This document shows positions 22,871 through 40,364 of a stretch of 64,000 bases of DNA, in pieces (position 1 is the first letter of the stretch; each line of letters starts with the position of its first letter). The stretch covers positions 1-64,000 of the IMG/VR virus record IMGVR_UViG_3300029841_000009. One strand, written 5' to 3'. The notes below the pieces were generated by a model, which was given only the letters and a program-made list of their open reading frames with translations, did no database searches and was not told the origin of the DNA. The DNA is from a virus (Duplodnaviria > Heunggongvirae > Uroviricota > Caudoviricetes). Made by a program: the position numbers and the translations under genes.

Positions 22871-22925
22871 GATTTTCGATGTTCCCGATGTCTACACACC
22901 ATCAAAACAGCTCAAAATGACACTT

Positions 22926-23303: not shown

Positions 23304-23306
23304 TGT

Positions 23307-23639
23307 TCAGATCTCCCGTATCGTGACGGGATAAAGCGCCTCTACCTGCTTTTTCTTCATGATGTAGACGTCTGTTCGCACACCTTTAGTGTCGACACAA
23401 TCAATCGTCCCATCGTCATAAAACACCATGAAATCAAGTTTATAAACGACACCACCTGGCAGATGAAAAGGCACCTGCATAAGAAACGTCACAACGCGGC
23501 CAGCTTTTCTCAGTAGCTTCAGTTCGCAGTAGTAATCAGCCTCTTTTTTGCTATCAAAAGAGATATCATCGACAACAGTTTTTTTATTGCCGTATTTGCT
23601 TTTCCTGGTCGCTGGTTTGCGAAAGCCGGTATATCTCAT
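23307..23639 (-). CDS. DUF1064-like phage protein
   Basis: 110 aa; pattern YGNKKT...FDSKKEADYY...VPFHLPGG recalled as DUF1064, common in phage replication modules. Confidence 0.45.
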   Translation of the reverse strand: MRYTGFRKPATRKSKYGNKKTVVDDISFDSKKEADYYCELKLLRKAGRVVTFLMQVPFHLPGGVVYKLDFMVFYDDGTIDCVDTKGVRTDVYIMKKKQVEALYPVTIREI

Positions 23640-24040
23640 TTGGTATCCCCTGGTACTTCACCAAGACTAAGATCAAACCCAATTTCGTCTTTAACTGACT
23701 GCGGCAACAGCTCCCACGTCTGCGCACACAAAAATTCATCGGTGCCATAACGCTCAACAAAGCGAGCACAATTACTCAGGGGAGGGTGACGAACGGCAAT
23801 ATGCGGAGGCACGCGCCCACCACCAGGCACAACACCGCGATGATGTGGTGCGCACAACCCAAAGCTATGGAAGTGGCAATTCTCATCAACGCTGCCGTAA
23901 TCAGGATCGTGATGTAGCTCCGTCCACAGCTCTGGATTCTCAATTTCACGGCCATCAATAATGCAAGCTATGCAACCCACGTGAGTGAGCACCGCTTGTA
24001 TATAAAGTTTCTCTTTCTTCGTTGGTGTACGTCCGTTCAT
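23636..24040 (-). CDS. Cys/His-rich protein (NinG/HNH-like putative nuclease)
   Basis: 134 aa with CIAC ... HHD ... CHFHSFGLCAPHH metal-binding-like motifs. Confidence 0.35.
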   Translation of the reverse strand: MNGRTPTKKEKLYIQAVLTHVGCIACIIDGREIENPELWTELHHDPDYGSVDENCHFHSFGLCAPHHRGVVPGGGRVPPHIAVRHPPLSNCARFVERYGTDEFLCAQTWELLPQSVKDEIGFDLSLGEVPGDTK

Positions 24041-24273
24041 CAGCGCCCCTTACCATTGATAAAGAGGTTGAACTCGTTGATTAACTGGACATACATGCTT
24101 CTGGCCGCGTAGTTCTTTGCCAGCTCTTTACGGGATGAGATCCCGCAAAACTCACGCAGAATCACAGAGGCCTCAGAACTGTTTGAAACGTTCTTCCCTG
24201 TTTTACTGGTCAGAAAGCGCCAGAATTGGGGATTCTGGCAATGCATCGCAGCACCGCGAACATAACTACTCAT
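24040..24273 (-). CDS. hypothetical protein
   Basis: 77-aa ORF, 4-nt overlaps with both neighbours. Confidence 0.35.
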   Translation of the reverse strand: MSSYVRGAAMHCQNPQFWRFLTSKTGKNVSNSSEASVILREFCGISSRKELAKNYAARSMYVQLINEFNLFINGKGR

Positions 24274-24785
24274 TGATGGCCCCCGTCATTTCTGGTGCTT
24301 TTCACCGTGCGGCTTCTTAAAAACCTGCCATCACGAACAACAGACACTTCTCGTTTACCCAACCTCATTTCACGGCGGTAACATTCAGAAAATGCCTCGT
24401 CCGGCATCATATAAATGCGACGCTTCGCCTCCGTATCCAGAAGGGAACGGCTTGGGGTTACATATAAAAACGACTCATCAATAGGGACAAAACCACGAGC
24501 AAGAATTGCTGGCAGAATGCCAGGAAGAACGCAGAAAACAGCTCCACGATGCAGCAACATCTGGTACTCCATGACCTCCGTTATCCCCGTGACTACTGTT
24601 ACGGTGTCACGTCTGTTACGGCTGGCAACCAGTCGCTGCACACGTCCAATTTTCTGATCTACAGATAGATGTTTGCTATCGTTATCAATATGATCGATAG
24701 CAAATCCTTTAATCGTTTGATCAAGGTAGTGCACCACCTTCGATTGAATCTGGTGATTATCACCAAAGAAGGCCAGAATCATCAT
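24270..24785 (-). CDS. hypothetical early-region protein
   Basis: 171-aa ORF coupled to the Cro-like gene. Confidence 0.4.
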   Translation of the reverse strand: MMILAFFGDNHQIQSKVVHYLDQTIKGFAIDHIDNDSKHLSVDQKIGRVQRLVASRNRRDTVTVVTGITEVMEYQMLLHRGAVFCVLPGILPAILARGFVPIDESFLYVTPSRSLLDTEAKRRIYMMPDEAFSECYRREMRLGKREVSVVRDGRFLRSRTVKSTRNDGGHQ

Positions 24786-25276
24786 TCCTCAAGCCTCCCA
24801 AGTGCTGAACGCCGGGCGTTGCTAATCTCCTTATGAATCAGCTCGATATCGCTGGAATCTTTATTCTTAAGCTCCAGCACGGTAATCGCATCACGAACCT
24901 CTGAAACGGTTACGTGTGAGTGTTTCCAGCGAGCAATGAATCGCGGACCGCGTAGATTGCAACGCTCCGCAGGCATCCCCAACTCAGAGAAAACCGCTTT
25001 CAGCCTTGATAAGCAGTTAACAGGGAGATTCCCTTTGATCTTGTTCTGCCGAACCGATGTGCCATCGCTACGCTGGCGCTGACGTTCGGCAAAATCTGCC
25101 GCCCATTGCTGGACGTTAATCCGGCCTTCCGAATACGCCACCAGCAGCGTCAGGTTATCCGCACGAGGGAATCTCTCGAAGCGATACCAGGCACCAATCA
25201 GTGATGACGTAAAGCCAAACTTTCTGGCAACACCAATTTGGCCTCCATTTTCGTCAACCCACTCCTGAAAGGTCAT
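24782..25276 (-). CDS. Cro/YdaS-like HTH regulator with C-terminal extension
   Basis: 164 aa, divergent from the CI gene; N-terminal helix-turn-helix-like segment (GVARKFGFTSSLIGAWYRFERFP). Confidence 0.5.
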   Translation of the reverse strand: MTFQEWVDENGGQIGVARKFGFTSSLIGAWYRFERFPRADNLTLLVAYSEGRINVQQWAADFAERQRQRSDGTSVRQNKIKGNLPVNCLSRLKAVFSELGMPAERCNLRGPRFIARWKHSHVTVSEVRDAITVLELKNKDSSDIELIHKEISNARRSALGRLEE

Positions 25277-25289
25277 TTAACGAACTCCA

Positions 25290-25415
25290 GTTAAAACCAC
25301 GATATGTGGTATTAAAACCACATATCGTGAGTTTTTCAATGGGCAAAACAAAAAATAACCTTCTATTTGTGGTCCACCTCTCGTCTTACCATGTGAAAAC
25401 CACTAAATGTGGTAA
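25290..25415. promoter_or_regulatory. divergent operator/promoter region (OR/OL-like) with ACCAC-N5-GTGGT operators
   Basis: ACCACGATATGTGGT (perfect palindrome), ACCACATATCGTGAG and ACCACTAAATGTGGT between the Cro-like and CI genes. Confidence 0.6.
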
Positions 25416-25450
25416 TGTATAAATAACCCACCATTCACGATTGATGAGAC

Positions 25451-26107
25451 ATGAAAAGCAACGACGAGAACATCAAGAAAGAAATAGGTCTGCGCATTCA
25501 GACTCTACGGAAACAATCCGGCATGACTGCCGGAGATCTCCAGCAAGTCACTGGAATAGGCTTAAGCACCTTGCAGAACTATGAGGCCGGATTAAGACAA
25601 CCATCTATACCTGCCATCAAGAAAATCGCGCACGCCCTGAAAGCATCAGCGCCTTATATCGCGTGCTTAACAGATAACCCGTTCCCACCCCAGAATACTA
25701 ACGCTCCTGTTATTCCTGGGCTTGTAGCTATAAAAAATGACATAGCATCGCACGCCGGAGAAAAGCCAGTGCTGGCGATAGAACAGGAGATTCTACGAAG
25801 CAAGAACATCAACCCATCGTCTCTGTCAGTTCTCCAGAGCAACGATGAGTTAATGTCACCAACAATATCCCCTGGCTCCCAAGTCCTGATTGATACAGAC
25901 GATACAGAGATTCATGAGGGGATCTATGCCCTTGAAGACAGAAATGGCCTGGTTGTTTTGAGGCACTGTAGAGTCATACCGGGTGACAATGCTGTTATGC
26001 TGTCAACCGAAAGGGATGCTGAAATGAACACTAAGCATCTGAATAACGAGGAATTTAAGCGTTATAAAGTTCTGGGCCGCGTAGTTAGTGTTGTCAACTG
26101 GTTATGA
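25451..26107 (+). CDS. cI: CI-type repressor (HTH_XRE N-terminal domain plus S24 LexA-like autopeptidase domain)
   Basis: 218 aa; N-terminal HTH (LRKQSGMTAGDLQQVTGIGLSTLQNYEAG), C-terminal Ser/Lys dyad context (LMSPT ... RYKVLGRVV). Confidence 0.8.
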   Translation: MKSNDENIKKEIGLRIQTLRKQSGMTAGDLQQVTGIGLSTLQNYEAGLRQPSIPAIKKIAHALKASAPYIACLTDNPFPPQNTNAPVIPGLVAIKNDIASHAGEKPVLAIEQEILRSKNINPSSLSVLQSNDELMSPTISPGSQVLIDTDDTEIHEGIYALEDRNGLVVLRHCRVIPGDNAVMLSTERDAEMNTKHLNNEEFKRYKVLGRVVSVVNWL

Positions 26108-26199
26108 TACACAGCACGGCGAAAGCCGTGCATTTCTACGCTCAAAAAAACCACATTTTGTGGTTTTGACAACATGTGAAAGTATAAAAGAGGCTACGC

Positions 26200-26574
26200 A
26201 TGGAATTACATACAGCCAATAAAAACGAAACTCTGATCACTGCTGGAATCGAAATCCAAGCGTTGAACATAGCGATTGAGTGTATGTTATGCCAAATCAT
26301 TGATAATGAGAAAGATATCGACTGGATATCATCTACCCTTCATCTTGCTTACGAGCAAAAAGCCTGCCTCAAAACAGCCTTACAATACGATGTGCCTTCT
26401 GTATCAAAGCTGTGCCAGTCATTGATGGCATATAACAGAGCTATCATTTCTGTATGCCTCATGATTCTCGATGAGAATACCCCTCTTAGCGACCGCTCAG
26501 AAGCAGCTCTAACCCTCTCACGTAAACAGCGACAGCTAGCAAATCAACTGATATCAACGATAGCTGACCTCTGA
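26200..26574 (+). CDS. hypothetical protein downstream of cI
   Basis: 124-aa ORF preceded by an ACCACATTTTGTGGT operator-like palindrome; followed by a hairpin. Confidence 0.4.
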   Translation: MELHTANKNETLITAGIEIQALNIAIECMLCQIIDNEKDIDWISSTLHLAYEQKACLKTALQYDVPSVSKLCQSLMAYNRAIISVCLMILDENTPLSDRSEAALTLSRKQRQLANQLISTIADL

Positions 26575-26577
26575 CTG

Positions 26578-26600
26578 CAAGCGGGCTAACGCCCGCTTAT
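26578..26600 (+). terminator. hairpin terminator
   Basis: AAGCGGGC-TAAC-GCCCGCTT followed by an A/T-rich run. Confidence 0.4.
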
Positions 26601-26705
26601 ATGATTATAGATTTATATAATTATATAAAACGCTTTTCATCCGCCAAAAAGTTGGTTATGCTTACCTCGTTCTATAAATATAGATTTATAGAATTATATA
26701 ACCAA
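26585..26705. repeat. AT-rich iteron-like repeats upstream of parA (candidate centromere / par operator)
   Basis: Repeated TATAGATTTATA(T/G)AATTATATAA units; a further copy lies at 27377-27420 between the two par genes. Confidence 0.45.
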
Positions 26706-26709
26706 ACAC

Positions 26710-27378
26710 ATGGAGTCTCGACAAATGACTATCTCTGTAGGTATTTTCAACGGAAAAGGCGGCGTAACCAAATCAACAATTGCCCGTGCTTTAGCAGTTG
26801 CTTATGCAAAGGCTGGCTGGAATGTATGCCTGATCGATATGGATGTGCTTAACGGAACGGTAACGCGTTGGGTACAACGCAGAATGGCCAACAATATCGA
26901 ACCAGCAATCGCGGCGCAGCCGTGCGGCACACCATCACAAGTCCAGAAAATCATCGAATCAGAAGTATACGACCTGGTTATCGTCGATGGCGGTGCCTAC
27001 GCATCTGAATCAGTACCGAAGCTCTCTGAATTTCTGGATATGGTTATTTTGCCAACCAGATTCTCTACCGATGACCTGGAAACCACCGTTAACACAGCTC
27101 ACGGCATCGTTAAAAAGGGTGTACCAATCAAGAAAATTTGCATGGTGTTTTCCGGCGCGGCTGAAAACGAAGCTGACTATATTGAAGCCCAAGAGTACCT
27201 GGCTAATACGCCATACTTTGTTGTCGATAAGTACATTCCCCACAAGCCAGCTCTGAGCAAAGCTCAGGATAAGGGCTTAAGCCTTATTGAGTGCTCATAC
27301 GTTGCGCCACGCAAAAAGGCAGACGATGTTATCCAGGGGATTATCAATCAGCTTGAGGCTCTGACTACTGCCGCGTAA
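26710..27378 (+). CDS. parA: ParA-family partition ATPase (small type Ib-like)
   Basis: Deviant Walker A GKGGVTKST near the N-terminus, about 220 aa with no N-terminal HTH; the start may be the second ATG (26725) preceded by GGAG. Confidence 0.8.
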   Translation: MESRQMTISVGIFNGKGGVTKSTIARALAVAYAKAGWNVCLIDMDVLNGTVTRWVQRRMANNIEPAIAAQPCGTPSQVQKIIESEVYDLVIVDGGAYASESVPKLSEFLDMVILPTRFSTDDLETTVNTAHGIVKKGVPIKKICMVFSGAAENEADYIEAQEYLANTPYFVVDKYIPHKPALSKAQDKGLSLIECSYVAPRKKADDVIQGIINQLEALTTAA

Positions 27379-27421
27379 TATATAATTATAGTTTTATAGA
27401 TTTATATAAAAGGGGATACAC

Positions 27422-27670
27422 ATGGCCGCACCATCAAAACCACCGAAAAAGAACAGCAAAGGCGTACCGCCATCAATCGAACAACCGCAGGTTTTCGACC
27501 CGACTGAAACGCCGACCAGAACCAAATCAGGTGGGGCACAAATGGCGTTTAACGTCGACCCTGAATTTAAACGCGAGTACAAAACGTTCGCCAGCTCAAT
27601 GGATATGTCATTGAAAGAAGTGCTGACAAAATCTTTTGAGTTACTCAAGGCTCAATACAACCAGAAGTAA
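27422..27670 (+). CDS. ribbon-helix-helix ParG-like partition / centromere-binding protein
   Basis: 82 aa, disordered basic N-terminus then MAFNVDPEFKREYKTFASSMDMSLKEVLTKSF (beta strand plus helices), immediately downstream of parA. Confidence 0.55.
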   Translation: MAAPSKPPKKNSKGVPPSIEQPQVFDPTETPTRTKSGGAQMAFNVDPEFKREYKTFASSMDMSLKEVLTKSFELLKAQYNQK

Positions 27671-27699
27671 GAGAAGGTGACGGCCTCCAGCGCCAACTG

Positions 27700-27882
27700 T
27701 TGGCCGTCGCGACACAACAAGGGGAATTTGTTATGTCCGAGCAACAATATACACGGTTACTGAAAACTCGTCTAACCGACCTCAAACGGCTGCAAGCTGG
27801 TTGCTTATTTGCCCTGCTATCTACCAGGCCAGAATGGGTACGTGAAGCAGTTCTGAAAGGTTTAATGCGCTCCAGCGTTTAA
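27700..27882 (+). CDS. small hypothetical protein
   Basis: 60-aa ORF (likely start MSEQQY) ahead of a strong hairpin. Confidence 0.3.
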   Translation: MAVATQQGEFVMSEQQYTRLLKTRLTDLKRLQAGCLFALLSTRPEWVREAVLKGLMRSSV

Positions 27883-27894
27883 ATTCAACCATAA

Positions 27895-27925
27895 AAAAGG
27901 CCCCCGAAGGGGCCTAATCGCTACT
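27895..27925. terminator. bidirectional hairpin terminator
   Basis: AGGCCCC-GAAG-GGGCCT with an A-run 5' on plus (T-run on minus). Confidence 0.5.
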
Positions 27926-28043
27926 TGCTGCTAATGTTTATCGTCACATTCAGAGCGTTATCAGTAATCTTCCAACCCTCCCCATGTGGCGTAAACAAAG
28001 CTCCAGTAACAACGATAAAAATACACATACAGTATTTTTTCAT
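27921..28043 (-). CDS. small hydrophobic peptide (about 40 aa)
   Basis: Internal Met of track ORF 27921..28103 gives MKKYCMCIFIVVTGALFTPHGEGWKITDNALNVTINISSK; ends at the terminator hairpin. Confidence 0.35.
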   Translation of the reverse strand: MKKYCMCIFIVVTGALFTPHGEGWKITDNALNVTINISSK

Positions 28044-28539
28044 TGTATGGCCCTTACAGGCCGTTTCACGGCATCCCCACCGACGAAAACAACGCGAGAG
28101 CAAGCACGGCTGCTTGTGCTTGCATGTACGGCAACGGAGAATCCTCCCCTAAAGTCGGTGCCCGGGTGCGAATCGGCGGGAAGGTCCACAGGTATTTTAC
28201 GATTATTTTAAGATTAGTTATAGGAAAGAAATTAAACGAAAAAACTCGTTTATTTTCACAAAATCAGTAACCTACCCACAATCTGTGAGTTTGCAGGCAC
28301 AACAAGAACCACAATTTTATGAAGCATAATAGTGGACTATTATTACCTTTTGGGTAAAATTAACTTGCTGCTTGTGCTTGCGTGGTTGTTTATACAACAA
28401 CGTAATGCTGAAAGGACCGCGAATCCGATCAGCACGAAAGAACCGTCCTCAATAGGGCGGTTTTTTTGTTTCTGCCTACCAATAAACCCACACTATGTGG
28501 TTGTCTCTGTTAAAATCCCGCCGTATTGACATAAATGCG

Positions 28540-28640
28540 CCATTGGTGGACACTTTCCGAGCCGTAGCAAAATCTACGGTCGGGATTGGAACCCCGATAA
28601 TCATCATGGCGCATACCGCGTTAGCGGTTTTTTTATGCGT
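28540..28640 (+). ncRNA. candidate structured regulatory RNA upstream of the antirepressor operon (immI/c4-like antisense RNA)
   Basis: ORF-free; successive hairpins (CCGTAG-caaaat-CTACGG; CGGG-ATTGGAA-CCCG) ending in ACCGC-GTTA-GCGGT plus T7; loop ATTGGAA is complementary to the downstream loop GTTCCAAC. Confidence 0.35.
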
Positions 28641-28799
28641 AAAGCACTGCTACACCCAAATTATGGTGGGGCGTGCGGGGGAGTCGTAAGACTCGCCGGA
28701 TTCCATGGTGACCGGTAGTTCCAACCCTGTACGTCTCACCACCCAATGATTGGAACCAGACGGTGGTGAGTATCCTTAACCTTTAAGGGAACTATCACC

Positions 28800-28991
28800 A
28801 TGACAAACCTACCCCATGACTATTACGTCAACCTCGTAAAGATCCTTCTCAAGAAAGCCTCATACGCCGATAAATTCCGCCTGGCTGAAATCATCGAGCG
28901 CGAAGCTATGCGCATCGCCAGCAACGATAACGCTGTTTCTGTCGCAAAAATCTCCCTCGTAACCAAAGTAGTTATGGGAGGTGCAAAATGA
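28800..28991 (+). CDS. small ORF translationally coupled to the antirepressor (icd-like position)
   Basis: 63 aa; stop overlaps the antirepressor ATG. Confidence 0.4.
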   Translation: MTNLPHDYYVNLVKILLKKASYADKFRLAEIIEREAMRIASNDNAVSVAKISLVTKVVMGGAK

Positions 28992-30169
28992 AAACGCTTC
29001 CGACCGTTAACACCCTACAGCCTATCCTGCATAACCAGCTCCCCGTTATCACTACTGAACTACTGGCGCAATTGTATGGAACCGAGCGCCAACGTCTGAC
29101 AAACAATTTCAATAGAAACAAGGAACGTTTTATAGAAGGTAAACACTTTTTTAGGATAGAAGGTAAAGAGTTACGAGAGTTGAAGAACAAAAACTCTTTA
29201 AGAGTTCCTGTGAGAGTAGTTAACGAACCATCTTTAAGAGGGTTACAAATTCCCCCGAAAGTTCGCTCCCTCATCCTCTGGACAGAACGCGGGGCTGCAC
29301 GTCACGCCAAAATGCTTGAAACTAACCAAGCGTGGGATGTGTTCGAACGGCTGGAAGACAGCTACTTCAACCAGAACGCACAAACGGCCGCGACCGTAAC
29401 CGTCTCACCAAACAATGCTCGTGAGGTTGTCGATACGCTCAACGCCAAACCAATGTATTACGTTAAGGTGTGCAACAACGAGCCACTCACAACCTCAGCC
29501 GATGTTGCCCAAGCATTCAGCACCACAAACAATTCCATCGTTATGGCCATCGATGCGTTACGCATTCCTCGCACGGCTGCGGCGCGTCACTTCTTTAAAG
29601 AACAACGACCGCTGGAAGGAAGCGACCGCGAAATAACAATCTATCGCATGACAAAAGACGGATTTACCTTGCTCATGGAAAGTATCGACGGTCCAGGCGT
29701 GAAGGATATCAAGCTGGCCTACATTGAAGCCTTTAACGCTATCAGCAGCGTGTTAAAGGCAGAATACGAGCGAATGCTATACAACCGACTGTATCAGGAA
29801 ACAAAGATTATCCGAACGGCAACAGAACATCATCGGCTATTAACGGAACCAAACTACCGCAAGACACTAATCAAAGAGTTTGACAAGGCGACGGAGAAAA
29901 CTAAAGCGGCACTAAATCTACCAACAATGACTAAAGATGATGTGATATCAGCCTTACTTCTTGATCTGCTCAGAAACGCCAGAGCACTTATCAGTTTTGA
30001 CGAAAACCTGAATCCTCAGCTCAAGCTACTACCACCGACAGGCAAAGTAGTCGACCAAGCAGATCACAACAGCATACTCAGCGTACTGGATGCAAACCTG
30101 CCAGCCAGGACACTACAGGAGCTGATAAAAATATCTGCGGATAAACTGGCCGCAGGTGCAAAACCATAA
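28988..30169 (+). CDS. ant: phage antirepressor (AntA/ORF6N-like N-terminal domain)
   Basis: 393 aa; N-terminal VITTELLAQLYGTERQRLTNNFNRNKERFIEGKHFFRIEGKELREL resembles antirepressor N-domains; sits downstream of the RNA-like region. Confidence 0.55.
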   Translation: MKTLPTVNTLQPILHNQLPVITTELLAQLYGTERQRLTNNFNRNKERFIEGKHFFRIEGKELRELKNKNSLRVPVRVVNEPSLRGLQIPPKVRSLILWTERGAARHAKMLETNQAWDVFERLEDSYFNQNAQTAATVTVSPNNAREVVDTLNAKPMYYVKVCNNEPLTTSADVAQAFSTTNNSIVMAIDALRIPRTAAARHFFKEQRPLEGSDREITIYRMTKDGFTLLMESIDGPGVKDIKLAYIEAFNAISSVLKAEYERMLYNRLYQETKIIRTATEHHRLLTEPNYRKTLIKEFDKATEKTKAALNLPTMTKDDVISALLLDLLRNARALISFDENLNPQLKLLPPTGKVVDQADHNSILSVLDANLPARTLQELIKISADKLAAGAKP

Positions 30170-30203
30170 AACAAAGCGCCCGATTTGGGCGCTTCTTCAA
30201 TTC

Positions 30204-30839
30204 TTAATATTTCGGTGTAATCAGTAGCGATACATGCCCTGATTTGTCACGAGAAACGTAATACTCGCCTCTCTTAGTCTTGAACTCAGCTTTCTGCATA
30301 TCTGATTTAACAATCTGCTCTAACTGCGCAATCACGGTGTCTCTTTCACTTGACGCATCCAAGACTTCAACTGCTACGGCCATAGAAAGCAAGGAATCAG
30401 AGTTAGGCTTGGATACTCGCCATAATAACTCAGAAATCTTCCCATCCTTATCAACTCTAGCCCGACCGTTAACAGATGAGTTGATGGCAAATTCAACGGT
30501 GTTATTACCTTGTTTAACAGACTTAATTCTTATAGTGGAGGTGGCTTTTCCTGATGTAACGATGCCTTCAAGGTCATCATTATATAACTGCTTAAACTTA
30601 TCTACGGTCACACCATCAAAAGCAGCTCCGGTAGTAGCCGCAGTGTTGGAGTCTTCTGGGATCAAGGTCACAGCCGCAAGAGTATTAACAACTACAAAAG
30701 TAGCAATCCCGAGAAAGCCACTCACTAAAACAGCTTTGAACTTACCACCAGAAGACGAGGCACATTGTTTCCGATATGCGCCACGAACTACGAAGAAACA
30801 CAAAATCAGGCTAATAATAAACGCCACCAGCATCCCCAT
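30204..30839 (-). CDS. membrane protein (two N-terminal transmembrane helices), unknown function
   Basis: 211 aa; hydrophobic segments LVAFIISLILCFFVV and VLVSGFLGIATFVVV followed by a soluble domain; convergent with ant. Confidence 0.45.
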   Translation of the reverse strand: MGMLVAFIISLILCFFVVRGAYRKQCASSSGGKFKAVLVSGFLGIATFVVVNTLAAVTLIPEDSNTAATTGAAFDGVTVDKFKQLYNDDLEGIVTSGKATSTIRIKSVKQGNNTVEFAINSSVNGRARVDKDGKISELLWRVSKPNSDSLLSMAVAVEVLDASSERDTVIAQLEQIVKSDMQKAEFKTKRGEYYVSRDKSGHVSLLITPKY

Positions 30840-31399
30840 AGAAATCTCCTTTTAGATATAAGGGTAAAGCAATATCGTATTAGATCTTCCTTAAGACACA
30901 ACCCCCCCTCCCCCCATACAGGGTGCCCTTTACCGGAGTTCCGGCCCCTTCTCAAAAGCATCAAAAAAAGCTCGAGATCGAGTACCGGAACTCATGCCAC
31001 CAGATAGCTCCACATCGTTTCCAATGCTTCGCCGCCGTGTGCGCCCTGTGGCCCACAATCATGCCATTGGTCGTCTGATATACCTTCTTCTGCTCATTGA
31101 GCACAGGCGAGTTGTCGCACTCCTGCCTTTCTCAGACTCGACTTAGTTTAGATCGCTGTTCCTGGCTTGCGTCAGCACACTTTCCCCTTGTACGCATACC
31201 CGCGCGCCACTTCGCCCAAAAACACCGAACCCAACGAAGTAGCAAAGACAACGACGCGAGCGTGAGTCTGAAACGTGCACCAGTAAAAAAGGGGTTGCAG
31301 GCGCAAAAAGATTTGATTATCTTTAGACGCAAGAAAGCCGCCCCAATCAAGAGGTGTCTTTTTAAATCCAGCCTACCAAGCAAGATTTAAATTTCAGAC

Positions 31400-31432
31400 T
31401 GAAAACCGCCCGGCAAGGCGGTTTTTGTCTTT
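31400..31432 (+). terminator. rho-independent terminator
   Basis: AAACCGCC-CGGCAA-GGCGGTTT followed by TTGTCTTT, at the end of an ORF-poor stretch. Confidence 0.45.
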
Positions 31433-31474
31433 CTGGCGCTTACATTACACCACCAGAAAACGATCCGTAAAGGA

Positions 31475-31747
31475 TCATTTGATCCCTTGTTCCAATTCTG
31501 CCGACACTTTAACCTTTTCCCATACAAGGGTTTGCAGCCTTAACAGAATCGCATCTTTATCAAGGTGTGAAAGATCCTTAACCATATCGTCAAACGACAG
31601 AACGCGAATGGCCATCTCAATGACCCTCGGCGGCTCCCCCTTCTCATATCGCTTATATGTAGCCAACGATATCCCAAACTCTTCGGCTGCTCGCTCCTGC
31701 GTCCAGTTCATCCCACGACGCCATAATTTCAATTCGTAACCCGTCAT
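31475..31747 (-). CDS. HTH XRE-family transcriptional regulator
   Basis: 90 aa with LKLWRRGMNWTQERAAEEFGISLATYKRYEKG helix-turn-helix. Confidence 0.55.
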   Translation of the reverse strand: MTGYELKLWRRGMNWTQERAAEEFGISLATYKRYEKGEPPRVIEMAIRVLSFDDMVKDLSHLDKDAILLRLQTLVWEKVKVSAELEQGIK

Positions 31748-31848
31748 TACATCCTCTACCTTTCCCTAGATATTCAATAAATTAGACATAGCCACTCACG
31801 ACAAAATAAGATGTATTAACAATCCAATCTTTAGGCTTTAGGTAAAAA

Positions 31849-32274
31849 ATGAGTTCATCTGCTTTTGTCACCGTGGTCACTGGTGTAAGTGTTTTTGTTC
31901 TAGGCCAACTCATCGTCAAAGGAGCTATTGAGCCTTACATTTCATTCAGGGAACAACTAGGGAAAATATCCAATCTGTTATTATGTAACCAAGCAAAAAT
32001 AGTGAATCCTAGCTCGAACTTAAAGCCAGAAATCATTCATGATCTAAAAGATTCCGCAGCACAGTTAATGGCAAAATATTCCACTTTACCTTTCTATATC
32101 AAAAAGTTACATATCGGCTTTCGTCTTGTTCCATCAGCCACCGAGATTCTTGGGGCAGCTCGAAATTTGAACTATATAGCGTCAATACATGAAGGTAAGA
32201 CTGGGGAGAATCCATCTAAGCATCTCGAAGAGATTGGCCATATGCTCAAAATACCAACTACCTATTCAAGCTAA
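31849..32274 (+). CDS. membrane-anchored hypothetical protein
   Basis: 141 aa; N-terminal transmembrane helix (FVTVVTGVSVFVLGQLIV); divergent from the HTH gene. Confidence 0.4.
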   Translation: MSSSAFVTVVTGVSVFVLGQLIVKGAIEPYISFREQLGKISNLLLCNQAKIVNPSSNLKPEIIHDLKDSAAQLMAKYSTLPFYIKKLHIGFRLVPSATEILGAARNLNYIASIHEGKTGENPSKHLEEIGHMLKIPTTYSS

Positions 32275-32376
32275 CCCAATGTAAGTTATCGGCTTGCCCC
32301 ACAATAAGTTATCTATCTTCAAACGCCCCTATATTAACACTCGCAAAGTGTCAAAATGACACTTTGCGCATTGTGT

Positions 32377-32757
32377 TTACTTAACGAGGAATAAAAATGG
32401 TTTATCGTTCGGCGGTGTACTCGGGGCTGGCTCGCTTTTGCTCATACGATCAGTGTACCAGGCCAGCTCCTTGTCAAAGTAAGCCTGATTAAAATAGGCC
32501 ATGAATGTGGTTTCAAATCCATAACGACCGCTAATACGCAGCATCTGATTGCCGTTCTCTGTTTCCAGATATACCTGGGCACGTTCCTGATTCTCCTTCA
32601 GCCAAGTTAAAGCCTCGTCGCACGAGGACACACGATACTCATCATCGTAGCCGTCATCGATGCGGCTTGAAGAAGAACGGCAAATCACGCCAACAGAACC
32701 AGCCAGGATAGTTTGAATTTTAAGGAAAGCGTTTTTGCGGATTTTAATCATGCTCAT
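32377..32757 (-). CDS. hypothetical protein (cargo of promoter-leader repeat copy B)
   Basis: 126-aa ORF starting right at the repeat. Confidence 0.45.
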   Translation of the reverse strand: MSMIKIRKNAFLKIQTILAGSVGVICRSSSSRIDDGYDDEYRVSSCDEALTWLKENQERAQVYLETENGNQMLRISGRYGFETTFMAYFNQAYFDKELAWYTDRMSKSEPAPSTPPNDKPFLFLVK

Positions 32758-32870
32758 CGGGTTATCTCCGGTTTAACCAGGGCGGGTATCGCTCGGTTTC
32801 GGGTATAACCATAGGAAATTTTTTCCCACCTGTAAAGCACTTTTATATAAATCTATAATTATATAATTCT
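32755..32870 (-). repeat. promoter-leader repeat, copy B
   Basis: Nearly identical to 63334-63449 and about 95 percent to 22757-22870; contains TTTACA-17nt-TATGGT and a GGAGA ribosome-binding site. Confidence 0.7.
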
Positions 32871-32919
32871 ATGAGCACAAAAAAGCCCCTTTGCAACAGG
32901 GGCTTATCATTCGTTCTGA

Positions 32920-33219
32920 TCAGATGTTAAACGCTATTCGTTTTCCTGTGGGAAGCTCAACATCCAGGCTTAATTTGCCTCCCATAGCTTCAACGTAACG
33001 CTTTAATGTCGCCAGCTTTAAATCATTTCCGCGCTGCTCCAGCTTTGTTACTGCTGGCTGGCTTATACCCATCGCCTCAGCAACCTGCTTTTGTGATAAC
33101 TGGAGTTCTTCACGCATCATCTGCAAGCCGACCTCAAGAATCATCTCATCTGCCATTTCTTTAATTCGCGCCTGGCTTTCCGGTAAACGGCTGGCAATCA
33201 CCTCATCTAATGTTCTCAT
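32920..33219 (-). CDS. higA: HigA-like antitoxin (HTH XRE)
   Basis: 99 aa with helix-turn-helix LSQKQVAEAMGISQPAVTKLEQ; immediately downstream of, and coupled to, the toxin gene. Confidence 0.6.
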   Translation of the reverse strand: MRTLDEVIASRLPESQARIKEMADEMILEVGLQMMREELQLSQKQVAEAMGISQPAVTKLEQRGNDLKLATLKRYVEAMGGKLSLDVELPTGKRIAFNI

Positions 33220-33572
33220 TACTTGCTCTCCAGTGTGTTCAGATGTGCTGCAAACTCATCCTCAGCTATACGCACCAGTTTTTTATAAAACCGCTTATCG
33301 TTACTTTTGTCTCCTGCACAAAGAACGATAGCCCGGCGAATCGGATCGAACGCATAAAAGGCTCTTATCGGACGGCCAGAAAACTGAACGCGAAGCTCTT
33401 TCATATTTTTGTACCGAGAACCTTTTACGGTATCGGCATATGGCCTGGGTAACTCAGGTCCGTAAACCTGTAGCTTTTTCAAATCAGCCAAAACCTTTTC
33501 CTGAAGAGCGTCTTCTTGCTCATTTAGCCAGCCGTCAAATCGCTGGCTAAAAAGTACCGTCCACATGCTCAA
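33219..33572 (-). CDS. higB: HigB/RelE-family toxin (Gp49-like addiction module killer)
   Basis: 117 aa; ELRVQFSGRPIRAFYAFDPIRRAIVLCAGDKSNDK matches the conserved core of this toxin family; toxin-first gene order; TATAACCTGT-type palindromes upstream. Confidence 0.65.
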   Translation of the reverse strand: MSMWTVLFSQRFDGWLNEQEDALQEKVLADLKKLQVYGPELPRPYADTVKGSRYKNMKELRVQFSGRPIRAFYAFDPIRRAIVLCAGDKSNDKRFYKKLVRIAEDEFAAHLNTLESK

Positions 33573-33810
33573 TCCTATAACCTGTAGTTTATATCACTAA
33601 CTATATAACCTGTGAGTTATAATTTCAAGAAAAACGGGGCCATTTAACATAATGGACGTTATCGGCACCACCGGATCACCGTTCATTGTCGGATCTAAAA
33701 AATCCGCTCAAAAGATCATGTTTTCCTGGGCGTTTTCCACCGTTTTTTATGTTGCTTATTTGTTAATGAAATCTCGTTTTCAGTTTCGCCTCATTTTCGA
33801 CGCGAAAGCC

Positions 33811-34101
33811 CTATTTTTGTGACTTTACTCCTGGCATATGGACTTCCCAGCGACGAATCCCCATAGCTGCGCAAAAATCAGCCACATAATTCAATCCCGC
33901 CCATTCGCGGATACCACCACGGGCTTTTTCAATGAAAACGGCAATCCCTTTTTTATTGAGAGCAAAAAGCCGCCAGCTTTTTGTCACTTCGTCCTGGGTA
34001 GCCACAACACAAGTGAAAGCTCCCATGCGATACAGGTCCAAGAACTCTTTGCGTGTTTTGCGTACAAGTTCCATAACAAACCTCATATTTGCATGTTTCA
34101 A
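33811..34101 (-). CDS. hypothetical protein (downstream partner of a two-gene module)
   Basis: 96 aa; 4-nt overlap with the upstream gene. Confidence 0.4.
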   Translation of the reverse strand: MKHANMRFVMELVRKTRKEFLDLYRMGAFTCVVATQDEVTKSWRLFALNKKGIAVFIEKARGGIREWAGLNYVADFCAAMGIRRWEVHMPGVKSQK

Positions 34102-34397
34102 ACATCTGTTTTGTTATCAATGAAGATTAACCCTAACCCAGCGAAGTAACACAGCAGCGCCCAGGCTGCATACGGAATGCTGGATCTGGATGTGGACTCC
34201 TTTAACATCTGCCAGTTGCGAACATTGCGACTATCTTTTAAGCCTAGTTTTTTGGCTAACTGCGAGCCGCTCATTCCGGTCAGGCCAATGACTGCCCGAA
34301 CTTCTCCACATGTAGGAGATTCCCATTCATCCGCTTTTTTTAAACAAGCCGGATTCAACATTTTTAAAACAGTATCTTTATCCATAACCATCTCCAT
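34098..34397 (-). CDS. HTH-like protein with C-terminal hydrophobic helix
   Basis: 99 aa; helix-turn-helix-like GLTGMSGSQLAKKLGL and C-terminal transmembrane-like AAWALLCYFAGLGLIF. Confidence 0.4.
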   Translation of the reverse strand: MEMVMDKDTVLKMLNPACLKKADEWESPTCGEVRAVIGLTGMSGSQLAKKLGLKDSRNVRNWQMLKESTSRSSIPYAAWALLCYFAGLGLIFIDNKTDV

Positions 34398-34779
34398 TTA
34401 TTATATCTACGATGATAGGAAATCTTTTCCTATGTGGCAATAGAAATTTACTACATTGCGTATAAGACAAGTTTTCTATGTCTAATAGGAAATGATGTTT
34501 CTTACATTTTATCGCGTTCTGATGGCTACTGTGTGCGTATTTATCGACGTTTATTGATAAGGCTCGCCCCTTCCTCCTGCAAAGCCCGGCCGTAGGCCTT
34601 ATTTCGGCCTTATATAAATTGATTTTGTATAGTTCGAAACGTGCCGTTTCGAAAAGGATGATCAGGCTGCTCCATGCCTCCGGCAAGTGCCGGAGGAGGT
34701 ATATTTGAGCGTAGCGACTCGAACCGGCGCGAGCTTTAGCTCGCTGCAAGGGCGAACATATTCACAGGCAAAGCCTGTG

Positions 34780-35028
34780 TAAGTTAAATAAAGAAAGTCT
34801 TAATAAAAGAAAGTGATTTTGCATTTATTTGTTTAGTGCATCTATTATAAAAAACCATTTGCATATACATATCAGAACTGTGGATAACTTTATTAGCCGA
34901 TGCCTGTAAAGGCGATATTTTTGCTGTGTTCAGGTTTAGAGAAAATTAATTTAGATTGTTTTTTGAACAGATATTTTATTGCGACGTAGATAATCCTCCG
35001 GTAAAACCGGATTCATCATTCAGGTGGG
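34780..35028. other. putative plasmid origin (oriR-like): AT-rich region with a DnaA box downstream of repA
   Basis: TGTGGATAA (DnaA box) at about 34879-34887 roughly 150 bp downstream of the repA stop; AT-rich, ORF-free, several palindromes. Confidence 0.45.
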
Positions 35029-35877
35029 TTAATGTTGGAGTGATTTCCAGGTCTTTCTTAACCTGTTATAACGCTGCTCAACGAGGGATCGTAAATATGC
35101 AAGGTCAGCACCAGGATACATGCCATCAGCAAATTCCTGACTAACCTCTCTGGTGATTTGATGACGAAGTTCGGCCTCTCCCTTTTCCCGAACAAGACGC
35201 GCAGCTCTCTCCGCTGCTTTCTGTTTTGCCTTTATCTCTCTGGCCGTCTTCCTCTGACGCCATACATTCTCCATCTGCTCCTGAATAACAATACGCTTAT
35301 AATCAGCCTCCGTTATCGCTTTTTTAAGCCGTTCGCTATTCTTCGCATTGAAGTAATTAAGTTTCTGGCTAACCGCACGTCTCCATGCTTGTTCAGTAAT
35401 ACCAACGGTTTCCAGCAGTTGATCACGAATCTCTATTTTCGCTGGCCAATACTGTTTATTCACCCGATCCCAGCGACGTTCATAATCAATAAAACCTAAC
35501 GCTTTCAGTTGCGACAACGCCCTTGTACAGCGCGTTATAGACTTGTTCCCAGCTTCGGATACGGTAGACAGGCCGCAAAAATCAGCCAACGCCTCAGCAC
35601 TAGCCAGAACCCGCTTAGAAATGATGTTTACATGGTGCAAAATCGCAGCGATCACAGCATTAATCGCCCGACGACGATGCTCGTTTATCCGGCGCTTCCG
35701 CTCTGACGGTTGATTAACGTAGAACGCAACCTCACACGTAAGATCACGCCCATTAATGCGCTGTAAAGCATCAGATAACACCAGCGGCAGCTTGTGCGTA
35801 TGGTGCTTTGGAGGCTGGAACTCCGGCGACAAATTACAAACGTAAGCTGAACGTAGAGACGGCATTGGTCTATCCAT
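35029..35877 (-). CDS. repA: IncFII-type replication initiator RepA (RepA1-like)
   Basis: 282 aa from the internal Met (MDRPMPSLR); SITRCTRALSQLKALGFIDYE and an Arg/Lys-rich C-terminus closely match R100/R1 RepA1 as recalled from memory. Confidence 0.75.
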   Translation of the reverse strand: MDRPMPSLRSAYVCNLSPEFQPPKHHTHKLPLVLSDALQRINGRDLTCEVAFYVNQPSERKRRINEHRRRAINAVIAAILHHVNIISKRVLASAEALADFCGLSTVSEAGNKSITRCTRALSQLKALGFIDYERRWDRVNKQYWPAKIEIRDQLLETVGITEQAWRRAVSQKLNYFNAKNSERLKKAITEADYKRIVIQEQMENVWRQRKTAREIKAKQKAAERAARLVREKGEAELRHQITREVSQEFADGMYPGADLAYLRSLVEQRYNRLRKTWKSLQH

Positions 35878-35964
35878 ATGTTCGCTCTTGCGTCCACGGA
35901 AAACCAACGTATAATGGGAGTTGTCGAGGCGCCCATGGATTGTTGTTGTTGGTTTTCCGTGGAT

Positions 35965-36005
35965 GTCGCAAGAAGCCCGCAGATTTATCTGCGGGCTTTT
36001 TGTTT
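35965..36005 (+). terminator. rho-independent terminator on the strand antisense to the repA leader (CopA-like antisense RNA 3' end)
   Basis: AAGCCCGCAGA-TTTA-TCTGCGGGCTT followed by TTTTGTTT about 100 nt upstream of the repA start, on the opposite strand. Confidence 0.45.
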
Positions 36006-36372
36006 CCATATCTGGTCACTTTCCAACCAGACACCCACAATCATAACCACGTTACGTGGTTTTAAGAGAACTCTACCACAACACTTTCGGTCATGCACGA
36101 AGTCTCTCACTGATCGAACGATAATCCACCAGTAAAAGGATCTAAATTGGATCTCGTTTTGCGAGCATCATACTACTGGCCTAACTCCAGTCAATGATTC
36201 CCAGCCAGAAACCTGCGGTAAACTCATCGTTCAGCAATATGCTGTCCGGCTTCAAAGATAAGGTGACATCATCCCTTAACAGCGCGGCCAGCTCCGTTAA
36301 AGGGTTGTTTTGACTTAATGCAAAACCGCTAATAAACATATTGGCGGTTTTGTTCCTTAAATCATCTTGCCT

Positions 36373-36948
36373 TTACACTAATTCTGGCCATTCGATATCA
36401 GGGGCATTTTCCGGCTGAACGCGATTCAGTAGCACACGGTATTTTTTCCAGTGTGTCAGGCTTAACTTTTCTTCCTCGGTAGCCATATCTAAATCGACAG
36501 CATCCTGCAGAGTGGCAATAATTTCACCTGCATATGCAATCAGCTCTTTCTTCTGAGAGTCAGCCGCTCTGACAAGCGCATCACGCTCTGCATTCTCATC
36601 ATTCACCCACGCATTGCCGTTCCATTTCTGATAATCCCCCTCCGGGGAAATGGCTGTCACGTCTGGAGGTAATACGCCAAGTTCAGAAATATAAATGGCT
36701 GCTCCCGTTTTCGTTTCATAGACGGTCTTTCCGCGATGGTCTTCCATCAGTTCCCATTTCATTTCATCTGCATTGAAAACGGCTGCATAACCCGCCGGAA
36801 TATCAGGCGGTGCAATATCTGTACTGTTTGCAGGCAGGCCAGTATACGGTGGGATATATGCGTCACTTTCGCCAATAAATTCATTGGTTCCATCAAGTAA
36901 ATTGAAAACGCGGATAGTTTGTGCTTCTGCACTCATTCTGAAAGCCAT
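36373..36948 (-). CDS. tfa: tail fiber assembly protein (lambda Tfa-like chaperone)
   Basis: 191 aa; MAFRMS...NEFIGE...[22 protein letters not shown]...[11 protein letters not shown]...APDIEWP matches lambda Tfa nearly residue for residue in conserved blocks. Confidence 0.85.
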
Positions 36949-39752
36949 TATGCAAGCCTCACAATATAGTTAAATGCGATGTTTTTGACGGTGTTTTCGG
37001 TATTACCCGTAGCATTTACCGTGATGGTGTGTCCGTGCGCACCTAATGCTACAGTGTGTGCATGGGCACCAATACCTACAGTGTGGTTATGCTGACCAAT
37101 ATCCACCGTATGGGCGTGCGCTCCGGCGGTGCTGGACACCTGATTGTTTCCTGAAGCCTGTACACGCTGTTTTCCACCGACAGAGTCGCCGCCATAAACA
37201 CCACCGACAGTGTGCGTATGATTGCCCGTATTGTTCGTTGATTTTGTGCCATGATTAAACGTACTGACCGTCTTCGTGCCGTAATCAAACGAACTGGTTG
37301 TTTTCGTTCCCAAATCCGTATTTGACGCACTGGCACTGTGAGTATGCGATTTAATCCCGTCCTGTTCCTGTGACAATACGGCACGCCCACTGGCGGGTTT
37401 GCCCTTGATTGTCCAGCCGCGCATATCTGGAATAACACCAGAAGGATAGGCTATAGCCAGTTTCGGATATGCTGCCTTATCAAACGTCTGCCCCTGCATA
37501 ATTGCATAGCCCGCAGGTGGTGTATCTGATGGCCACGGCAACGGAACACCTGGCGGAAATGCTTCAATATTTGCCGAGCCGTCAAATTTTACGCCGTTAA
37601 TTGTCCTTGCCGTTTTCAGCTTTGTAGCTGTAGCCGCATTGCCGGACAGTTCACCAGAAAGACCACCGCTGAATGTCTGTTTCGCCGCCCATGTCTGAGC
37701 TTCGTCGATAATTGGCACACGTCTTGTCGTGATCGTGCGGCTTCCCGGATTTCCTGAAATACGCACCATAAAAAAGCGGTAATTCGCTTTACTTACAGTG
37801 CTGCGCCATACATGCATTGAGCGCCCCGTACCGGAATCATCACTCGGACCAACTGCGATGTTTATCAGGTTGCCATCAATGACGCCCCAGTCCATACCGT
37901 CGGGAATGTTGGTCATGTTATCAAGCCGAACGGTTATCAGACTGCCCGGCACAAAGTCGTGGGTCTGCCAGTCCAGGCTGGTGAGCTTTGCCACTGCACC
38001 GCCGATACCCAGATTCAGGGGAAGTGAATACGAGGTGTAGACTTCCCGCCATTCGCTCCATGAGCTGCCGGTAAAAACGCGCTCAAACGTGCGACCTTTA
38101 AGGGTTGTACCTGTTCCGGCAGTTGTATAACGCTGCCATACGTTAACACCATCAAAGCGCCTCAACACTTCCAGAATACCGAGGACTGTCACGCCGTTTC
38201 CGTCCAGTATTGGACCATTGGTCGCTTTACCTGTAACGCTGTAAATACCTGGTGAAGTCACATCATTCAAATCCCCGTCGTAATAACGACTCTCTGACTG
38301 ATGACCGACTCTTAACCACGGTTCCCACTGCGGATTTGATGCATCCCAGCTTGCCGCAAGGCAGCGGACATACATATTTCCACGGCGAGTGGTATAACGT
38401 TGCGTTCTTCCATAATTCCCGCCTTCGAGGATCTCAAGCGTCCCCTGAGCAAAGCCGCCTTCCTCTGGATAATTGCGTTCATATGAAGCTATAGCCGAGC
38501 TACTGTTACGCCATAAACCAAGATGCTCGGCGGCTCCAAGCGTATTCAGGTCTATAGTCGTACTCAAAGGGCGGGTAGCAGATTGAGTGTGACGCCATAC
38601 GCCCCACGGACCATCAGTGCCATTCCACTTACTGGCGAGTTTACGCATGTATACATTGCCGTCTCCCGTGGTAAAGCGTTGAGTACCTGCAAAATTGCCG
38701 GCAGCAAAAACCTCAAGCACACCGACAGCATTATCTTCCGGGAAATTTTTCTCCAGTGTTGCGTTAGTTGAGGTAGCTTTAGACCAGATCCCCAGATAAG
38801 CCTTAACGGGACCAAATGTATTCAGGTCGGCATCAACCGGCATTTCGCCATTGTTTTTCATAAACGTCAGGCTAGTAACGCCAACATTGTCCAGAAAAGC
38901 TGATTTATCCTGGATATCTGCACCGTTCTGATTTTTCGCCAGACGTGAATTTGCGTTGTCATTTGCTGCCTTGACCGCTTTTGGCGTTGCCGCCTGCGTT
39001 TCAGACGTACTGTTAGTGGCACTACTGAGCTGAACAATCCCTTTTCGCGCCGTGGTAGCGTCCTGTGCGGTGTATTTAGCGTTAGCCAGGTCATATGCAG
39101 CCTTAACAGCCTTAGGCGTCGCTGCGAGCTTTTCAGACGTGCTATTGGTGGCATTACTGAGTTGAACAATGCCTTTTGATGTTAAAGTTGCATCAGGATG
39201 ATTACGTGATTGCTCATGTTTTACAATAGCTTGCTTAAGCCGCTTTGCTGAAACAGCCAGGGAATCATCTGTACCTGCATCAATTTCTTGTTCATTAGCA
39301 AATCTTGCTACTCCAACAACAGTTTCGGTTGCGGGAGGGTTAATAAACTCAACATCACCAAATGTAATGTTTTTAGTATCAAGATTTTTAATTGCTATAT
39401 CACTTGATATTAAAGCAATTGTAGAAGATGCTTTATTTATTATTACTTGTTCTTGCGAGTATACAGCAAACAATGTTCCTTTATTTGTATACAAACCTAT
39501 TGTATGGACAACATACTCATCTTTACTATCATCCTTCGCAGTTACATGAATGGTATCAGGAGAAACGACTTTGCCTCCTATTGTGGTAAGTCGCTTTATT
39601 TCATCTGTTATTTTTGTTTGTGTGGTTGATGTGGCATAATATCTACTACCTAAACCAACAGAAACGATCTCAACTTTATTTGTTCCAGTCTTGTTGGCAT
39701 TAACCAGCGCCTTACGCCCGGCGTCAGTCATCGTAAATAATAATTTACTCAC
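36948..39752 (-). CDS. tail fiber protein (receptor-binding)
   Basis: 934 aa; two tandem about 35-aa fiber repeats (GIVQLS[NS][17 protein letters not shown]), three tandem about 80-aa domains, C-terminal HxH-rich region ending [11 protein letters not shown]. Confidence 0.7.
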
Positions 39753-39782
39753 GCTTAATTCCTTGGATTAACAAATCGCAAA

Positions 39783-40364
39783 TTAGCACTCACCAATTAA
39801 TCGTACATAAGACACAGGCTGGAAAGCACCGACAATACCAACACCACCTGAAACATTGGTTGCTTGCGAAAATGTAAATAGTGTTCTTGCCGACTTTGCA
39901 CTCTTGATACTTCTTAACGTATCCTCCAACATCTCTTTCGAAGGAACAGCACCATCAAAAGAGTTAATCGAAGCAACAATTGAGGCTGTATATGGTTCGC
40001 CAGGTGGTGATGTTTCAAACCATTCTGTTATGTTTACCTCTCCACCCAAGCTATTTACTACATCTTCAACCGCTGCCCTTGTACCCTTTATTCGCTTTGT
40101 TCGTATTATTGATTTAAAAACAGAACGCTTTAACGATACAGGCCAACTATCCCTCCATGTATCAGCATTCCATTGCCAAGCTAAATGATCGAGAACAACT
40201 GAGTCCAGGTTATCAACAACGCTATATATTTCTGTCTTATATATTAAATTGTTAATTGCTTGTAGTTCATCATCAATAGCTTTCGACATAGCTATCACGT
40301 TGGGATCGCTAGCTAAGTTAGGAGGTAAAACATCCAACAAGCTAACATTAAAGATATCAGCCAT
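39783..40364 (-). CDS. baseplate protein (P2 gpI-like)
   Basis: 193 aa, between the gpJ-like and fiber genes. Confidence 0.45.
   Translation of the reverse strand: MADIFNVSLLDVLPPNLASDPNVIAMSKAIDDELQAINNLIYKTEIYSVVDNLDSVVLDHLAWQWNADTWRDSWPVSLKRSVFKSIIRTKRIKGTRAAVEDVVNSLGGEVNITEWFETSPPGEPYTASIVASINSFDGAVPSKEMLEDTLRSIKSAKSARTLFTFSQATNVSGGVGIVGAFQPVSYVRLIGEC

Follow-up and report, generated by a model that had tools for sequence, protein, structure and literature searches.

Probable origin by insertion of a divergent helix-turn-helix and membrane-protein gene pair in an Escherichia coli phage-plasmid

The DNA analysed here, called the window throughout, is a stretch of 64,000 nucleotides (positions 1 to 64,000 of the IMG/VR virus record IMGVR_UViG_3300029841_000009). 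The element in question is a circular Escherichia coli phage-plasmid of ~48 kb with RepA, ParA and myovirus-type genes, akin to the Yersinia pestis phages vB_YpM_39, vB_YpM_41 and vB_YpM_44. Two small open reading frames (ORFs) diverge from each other in this DNA: one encodes a helix-turn-helix (HTH) protein of 90 amino acids (aa) of the XRE/Cro type, and the other encodes a 141-aa protein with an N-terminal transmembrane (TM) helix. A sequence-only reading had taken them for a regulator and an abortive-infection or exclusion gene under its control. Our analysis points to a different history. We are highly confident that the pair consists of two unrelated units, joined by an insertion into a conserved two-gene operon. 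The 141-aa gene stands alone as an accessory gene: its composition is foreign, only some relatives have it, and its family is large, uncharacterised and tied to mobile elements. To the whole explanation, which combines an insertion-made pair with an accessory gene of the moron type, we assign a probability of roughly 0.6.

Both ORFs are real genes and not chance ORFs. For the HTH ORF, this follows from a match to phrog_6962 in a PHROGs profile search (E = 1.5e-45) and from the 69–99% identity that its product keeps among relatives. The protein also passes the Pfam gathering scores of HTH_3 (29.8 bits against a cutoff of 23, E = 6.1e-07) and HTH_31 (27.6 against 27). For the 141-aa ORF, it follows from a full-length match to phrog_7512, covering residues 1–141 of a 141-position profile (E = 1.3e-73), and from the 693 representative clusters that match the family profile. 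Its product aligns with this family from end to end, and the 141-aa ORF is not a fragment of a known metabolic or transport gene. A longer N-terminus is ruled out by an in-frame TAA at 31843–31845, ahead of the ATG; a plausible ribosome-binding site (AGGT, 31840–31843) lies 5 nt ahead of the same codon. The sequence-only reading had placed and described both ORFs correctly, including the single TM helix of the 141-aa protein: a strongly hydrophobic 19-mer at residues 5–23 has a mean Kyte–Doolittle value of 2.23, and the protein contains no second comparable segment.

The evidence that the pair was made by an insertion comes from relatives of the window (coordinates of all features are collected in Table 1). 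A 1.1-kb region around the two genes matches 72 E. coli records at ≥95% identity, in 72 places on plasmids and one on a chromosome, and also matches the three Y. pestis phages. The HTH gene is found in all 72 records, but the full query, including the 141-aa gene, is covered in only 13; the other 59 match the two flanks and lack the 141-aa gene. In vB_YpM_39 and pZ0117EC0148-4, which are without the insert, the HTH gene lies directly 3′ of a gene for a 126-aa protein, on the same strand and 63 bp away. A Salmonella relative, with a 126-aa protein 65% identical and an HTH protein 69% identical to those of the window, again has the HTH gene 3′ of the 126-aa gene, at a distance of 72 bp. The two genes are therefore neighbours on one strand, with 63–72 bp between them, in relatives from E. 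coli, Yersinia phages and Salmonella. Moreover, the HTH protein of the window, which has the 141-aa gene beside it, is 99% identical to those of two relatives without the insert. Because the pairing is kept in the absence of the insert, the conserved unit runs from the 126-aa gene to the HTH gene, and the 141-aa gene is an intruder. These results do not uphold the proposal that the HTH and membrane proteins form a regulator-controlled pair, as the HTH gene is core and its conserved partner is the 126-aa gene. They do bear out the view of the 141-aa gene as a variable accessory gene, of a kind that often encodes exclusion or defence functions.

Alignment to the inspected relatives delimits an insert of 583 bp, which takes the place of 17 bp (AGCATCCTCCTCGCACA) in the 63-bp gap that separates the 126-aa gene from the HTH gene. 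The insert begins one base past the start codon of the HTH gene and still provides a GAGGA-type ribosome-binding site for that gene. Its composition sets it apart from its surroundings: the GC content is 38.4%, against 45.9% in the window and 46–47% in the flanking genes, and GC at third codon positions is 35%, against 51–53% in the flanking genes. The 101 bp between the HTH and 141-aa genes have a GC content of 31.7%. No target-site duplications or terminal repeats were seen around the 583-bp insert. Independently of it, vB_YpM_41 carries a 318-bp non-coding element in the same 63-bp gap (6452–6769 of its locus). This element has 27-bp terminal inverted repeats that start with GGGG and match at 26 of 27 positions, is flanked by a 5-bp ATAGC target duplication and looks like a miniature element derived from the Tn3 family. 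The 63-bp gap would therefore be a repeated insertion site.

The family to which the 141-aa protein belongs is large. A profile search against 1.84 billion representatives returned the 693 clusters at E ≤ 0.001, nearly all of them 135–160 aa in length. Close relatives (56–81% identity) occur in E. coli, Salmonella, Serratia and Leclercia, and the named sources include Pseudoalteromonas, Chromohalobacter, Atlantibacter, Acidobacteriota and Margulisiibacteriota; each name given by the source is 'hypothetical protein'. In a tblastn search, 347 of 72,556 plasmid records contained the gene, and 264 of these 347 plasmids are conjugative; two phage records were also found, both of phage D6. Three different lambdoid prophages (from Leclercia, Atlantibacter and a metagenome) have the gene between their replication genes and ninB (DUF1367), where it runs opposite to the early operon. 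A P2-like Chromohalobacter prophage has it in the gap that separates the tail-fibre and sheath genes, together with two other small genes and once more on the opposite strand; P2 carries Z/fun at this place. One copy lies at a prophage end beside an integrase gene and another beside a gene with a ThsA_Macro domain. In phage D6, the family member is orf109, between humD and phd/doc. On Salmonella plasmids, the gene follows a Phd/ParE or Abi_2 gene, and further plasmid contexts include microcin-C-type plasmids and F-type plasmids near sitABCD in Salmonella and E. coli.

In about a dozen other contexts inspected, family members had no HTH gene directly next to them, no Pfam match was obtained for eight neighbouring proteins that were tested, and no conserved partner gene was found in the inspected contexts. 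Nucleotide similarity between contexts ends at the boundaries of the coding sequence, and the intergenic region of the insert has no sequence in common with the other contexts. With few exceptions, a family member is a lone accessory gene of a prophage or plasmid, oriented against the flow of the surrounding operon or located in an accessory spot. On several Salmonella and E. coli plasmids, the homologue lies within ~1–1.5 kb of a small serine recombinase (Resolvase) gene. Small serine recombinases are proposed as markers of anti-phage defence loci in a 2026 paper (PMC13552941).

The predicted properties of the 141-aa protein are shared across its family. The TM segment is kept in all 65 aligned relatives (median Kyte–Doolittle value 2.2, minimum 1.64), and among these 65 members lysine and arginine residues average 0.15 ahead of the helix, as against 2.4 over the 15 residues that follow it. 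Given this charge bias, the positive-inside rule would place the C-terminal helical domain of ~115 residues probably in the cytoplasm. Residues G12, Q20, P29, L45, P95, N108 and L133 are near-invariant across the wide family, and an I-P-T-T-Y motif at the C-terminus is common to the close relatives. The AlphaFold 2 model of the protein is all-helical (predicted local distance difference test score (pLDDT) 80; predicted template modelling score (pTM) 0.72), with helices at residues 4–46, 60–78, 97–114 and 123–133 and short ones at 48–52 and 82–86. The only PHROG common to all 65 relatives is phrog_7512, which has no annotated function; none of the 65 has a Pfam match, and a single PADLOC match among them is spurious.

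Morons, or lysogenic-conversion genes, are known from temperate phages, with HK97 gp15 and P2 Z/fun as examples. The 141-aa gene resembles them as a single small gene on a lower-GC insert that is variably present among syntenic relatives and runs against the neighbouring operon. It also has a promoter-like site on its 5′ side and a hairpin on its 3′ side, both being consensus matches only, and its family occupies accessory positions in lambdoid and P2-like prophages. It differs from the characterised morons in that its product has no sequence or fold similarity to theirs and most copies of the family are on plasmids and not on phages. The AT-rich insert landed in the operon gap right at the HTH start codon, with its gene in the opposite orientation. 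In the mechanism that we propose, the 141-aa gene would probably be transcribed, as long as the element persists as a plasmid prophage, from its own promoter, for which the sigma-70-like site within the insert is the candidate. The transcript would probably end at a palindrome of the backbone that lies just beyond the insert and looks like a terminator on the + strand. The region of this palindrome folds with z = −2.7, and the palindrome is also present in relatives without the insert; it could alternatively be a hairpin or an operator within the 126-aa/HTH operon. The product, anchored in the inner membrane by its one N-terminal helix, would protect the carrier cell or the element there, with blocked entry of competing phage DNA or action as a membrane-tethered sensor or effector as possible modes. 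We hold this protective function only tentatively, at somewhat less than even odds.

A precedent for such a role is P22 SieA, which alone suffices to block DNA injection (PMC10883804) and therefore offers a plausible way for one small inner-membrane protein to work in exclusion. The 141-aa protein is like SieA and other inner-membrane superinfection-exclusion proteins in being a small, single, prophage-borne protein with a predicted location in the inner membrane. It is unlike them in that it matches no exclusion family in PHROG, Pfam or PADLOC and has a single TM helix, with the bulk of the protein predicted to be cytoplasmic.

Several observations weigh against the explanation as a whole. 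What occupies the site was inspected in 7 of the 59 records without the cassette. Promoter-like sites occur in the region at chance level (4 found, 3.6 expected), and so the candidate upstream of the 141-aa gene is supported only by its position. The topology of the protein is a probable one, read from the charge bias only. Searches of Pfam, NCBIfam and PADLOC gave no match for the 141-aa protein, and Foldseek comparison of its model with PDB and BFVD returned generic helical bundles only, at E ≥ 0.2. The family profile found nothing below E = 0.001 among PDB sequences; the non-significant matches, to a C-type lectin (1.1e-03, no qualifying stretch), Mediator subunit 9 and RsgI2, were set aside. 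In view of these missing family and fold matches, the protective role is argued from genomic context alone. The frequent position of the gene on plasmids beside partition, toxin–antitoxin (TA) and umuDC-like genes would also fit a role in maintenance, and control by the HTH protein next door is compatible with the sequence, if unlikely.

The maintenance role belongs to a broader alternative, in which the 141-aa protein serves the mobile element itself, for example as a tether or modulator at the membrane that acts in plasmid maintenance, in SOS or in the timing of lysis, or by modulating a host membrane protein. The repeated occurrence of the gene on plasmids and in phage D6 beside genes for partition, Phd/Doc or Phd/ParE, and beside umuD-like or umuDC-like genes, is consistent with such a service, as is the count of conjugative plasmids among its carriers (264 of 347). 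However, the gene is dispensable for the phage-plasmid, as its absence from 59 of the 72 close relatives indicates; in the lambdoid and P2-like prophages it stands in accessory positions against lytic operons, and the family has no conserved partner gene. We consider this alternative improbable.

A second alternative, also improbable in our view, concerns the operon that was interrupted: the 126-aa and HTH proteins would be a toxin-first type II TA or addiction pair, and the 141-aa cassette a passenger that splits it. The two small genes do form a conserved bicistronic operon, close to repA and to a HigBA-type pair, and they share gene order and size class with the toxin-first operons HigBA and MqsRA. 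The HTH protein has matches to antitoxin-type HTH profiles (MqsA, 1e-05; HipB-type, 4.7e-04; RstR, 2.6e-08), and AT-rich repeats lie at the operon promoter, as in autoregulated operons. These profile matches are, however, all far below the curated cut-offs of the specific subfamilies. The protein resembles XRE/Cro-C1 regulators (HTH_3, PF01381) in that its HTH is N-terminal and a short helical tail makes up the C-terminus; it scores below the cut-off of every specific subfamily, and the main repressor candidate of the element is a different, 218-aa protein. The 126-aa protein, in contrast to HigBA and MqsRA toxins, has no match in Pfam, NCBIfam or PADLOC. Its AlphaFold 2 model has an alpha/beta fold (pLDDT 79), and Foldseek comparison with PDB gave no informative match and nothing below E = 0.05 (best E = 0.057, TM-score 0.26). 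In one relative (4453–5878 of its locus), with a 126-aa protein 70% identical to that of the window, an IS110-family transposase gene occupies the HTH position and only a 43-aa ORF follows the 126-aa gene, which is intact. The HigBA-type pair of the window (32920–33572, minus strand) lies between repA and the 126-aa/HTH operon and consists of a Gp49/HigB-like toxin (117 aa, PF05973, 6.5e-23) and an HTH_3 antitoxin (99 aa), with a one-base overlap between their genes.

The promoter of the 126-aa/HTH operon also argues against a self-contained TA unit. The ~115-bp promoter/leader occurs three times in the window on the minus strand: at the operon itself, at 63333–63451 (100% identical) and at 22752–22870 (94–95%). 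Every copy comprises an AT-rich repeat block, TTTACA-17-TATGGT, a conserved leader of 50 nt and an ATG. Identity among the copies stops near the start codon, and the other two precede unrelated genes, an 89-aa ORF (63067–63336) and a 355-aa DUF3560 gene (21689–22756). A promoter/leader common to unrelated operons suggests a phage regulon, and the three copies look like the control regions of a co-regulated phage-plasmid regulon, with a leader that is possibly structured. The HTH gene is therefore part of one operon of this regulon, with no specific link to the 141-aa gene. A 14-mer in the promoter block, TTATATAAWTCTAT, has 22 occurrences in the window at ≤2 mismatches, against 1.2 expected, with clusters at the three promoter copies and flanking parA (26710–27378) on either side. 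A centromere-binding or global regulator protein may bind there, much as in type Ib partition systems. Candidate operators of the HTH protein are the palindrome beyond the insert and the AT-rich repeats at 32843–32872. The region between the HTH and 141-aa genes (31748–31848) contains zero copies of the 14-mer, and no close-spaced palindrome was found there.

The least probable account is the one first proposed, in which the HTH protein is a dedicated repressor or activator of the 141-aa gene and both belong to one abortive-infection or exclusion module under regulator control. In its favour, accessory genes are commonly controlled by XRE-type regulators encoded beside them, and the two genes are divergent, with an AT-rich intergenic region and a promoter-like site facing the 141-aa gene. 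Against it, that region belongs wholly to the insert and lacks the repeated 14-mer, the HTH gene is present in all 72 related records and nearly unchanged in two relatives without the 141-aa gene, and HTH genes do not adjoin family members in the dozen or so other contexts inspected. As judged from the sequence, the 141-aa gene is probably not under dedicated control of its HTH neighbour, and we regard such a module as highly unlikely.

Table 1. Features of the region and of related loci (window coordinates except in the last row)
Feature	Position	Strand	Basis or remark
XRE/Cro-type HTH gene, 90 aa	31475–31747	−	Pfam HTH_3, phrog_6962; core phage-plasmid gene, second in the 126-aa/HTH operon
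141-aa gene	31849–32274	+	N-terminal TM helix (~residues 5–23), then helical domain; phrog_7512 member
Insert carrying the 141-aa gene, 583 bp	31748–32330		Alignment with vB_YpM_39, pZ0117EC0148-4 and vB_YpM_41
Sigma-70-like promoter candidate, TAGACA-18-TAAGAT	31783–31812	+	Consensus scan; in insert, 5′ of the 141-aa gene
Perfect palindrome, 12-bp arms (CGCAAAGTGTCA AAA TGACACTTTGCG)	32342–32368		Backbone, between the 126-aa stop codon and the insertion point
126-aa gene, phrog_8090	32377–32757	−	Conserved 5′ partner of the HTH gene
Promoter TTTACA-17-TATGGT (32836–32808), AT-rich repeat block and 50-nt leader of the 126-aa/HTH operon	32754–32872	−	Consensus/repeat scan
14-mer sites	21627–21654, 22842–22855, 26607–26701, 27396–27409, 32843–32872, 63422–63451		
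GC-rich hairpin with T/A runs on both sides	31400–31427		Directly 3′ of the HTH gene; likely minus-strand operon end
Main repressor candidate, 218-aa HTH_3 + Peptidase_S24 protein	25451–26107		Pfam domains
Plasmid loci with a homologue near a Resolvase gene	7802–8458; 7948–8604 (two loci); 6288–6932 (four loci)		Coordinates of the loci

The nature of the element is clear from its annotated relatives. The matching plasmids listed are 47–57 kb in size. Plasmids p48 of strain 1428 and pN10e, which both have the 141-aa cassette, and the phages carry genes for an IncFII-type repA, parA, two ParB-domain proteins and a Hin-type invertase, as well as holins, an endolysin and a myovirus-type set of sheath, tube, tape-measure and baseplate genes. 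The matches to plasmids and phages, together with this plasmid-prophage annotation, place the two genes in the accessory or maintenance region of a temperate phage-plasmid. The sequence-only reading had assigned them to a prophage accessory region; the accessory region of a temperate element stands, but the prophage is a plasmid and not an integrated one. Literature searches gave nothing specific on the accession of the 141-aa protein, the Yersinia phages or the phage-plasmid group. The pSLy3 group was considered as a name for this element and dropped because pSLy3 belongs to the ~100-kb SSU5 supergroup.

Positions 1–20261 of the window form a podovirus-type structural module, with a terminase, a T7-type portal, a GP7-type capsid, a T7 gp14-like protein and an internal virion protein with an SLT domain. 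This module matches chromosomal E. coli prophages at 96–98% identity, and no such genes are in the annotation of pN10e. A myovirus-type module is also present, at ~36373–58172. With two virion modules in the window, its source is either a recombinant element or a chimeric assembly. Plasmid pN10e (57 kb) has the same protein accessions twice, from the head protease through the baseplate genes (16356–28945 and 28914–41887), which points either to an assembly artefact or to ~12.5 kb of the structural module being duplicated in tandem. Nearer to the two genes, a 211-aa protein (phrog_23465; 30204–30839, minus strand) belongs to no Pfam family and is hydrophobic in segments near its N-terminus. Its gene lies in a stretch (~30151–30888) that has no match in p48 of strain 1428 and may be another variable accessory spot, between a Rha/ORF6N gene and the HTH gene. 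An Rfam scan of 30000–36500 found nothing near any gathering score.

The regulator–effector framing of the two genes describes an ordinary and largely coincidental arrangement, and it carries a caution: a divergent HTH gene beside a small membrane-protein gene is, by itself, no evidence of a regulatory module. The remaining candidate is a one-gene accessory unit of 0.43 kb with an exactly mapped insertion point. Its family, phrog_7512, is common on plasmids of E. coli and Salmonella and in accessory spots of prophages, yet was without annotation in any library searched. It is possible, although we hold this to be more doubtful than a protective function in general, that phrog_7512 is a new, widespread single-gene family of superinfection-exclusion or anti-phage proteins of ~145 aa, with one anchor and a cytoplasmic helical domain. 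In that case, the proteins would counter phage or plasmid DNA as it enters through the inner membrane. The solitary accessory genes of the family are carried by phage-plasmids, by prophages of the lambdoid and P2-like kinds and, in Enterobacteriaceae, by several hundred conjugative plasmids. Should the 141-aa protein turn out to act in exclusion or defence, it would be an additional compact system made of a single protein and would help to explain competition among phage-plasmids, prophages and conjugative plasmids.

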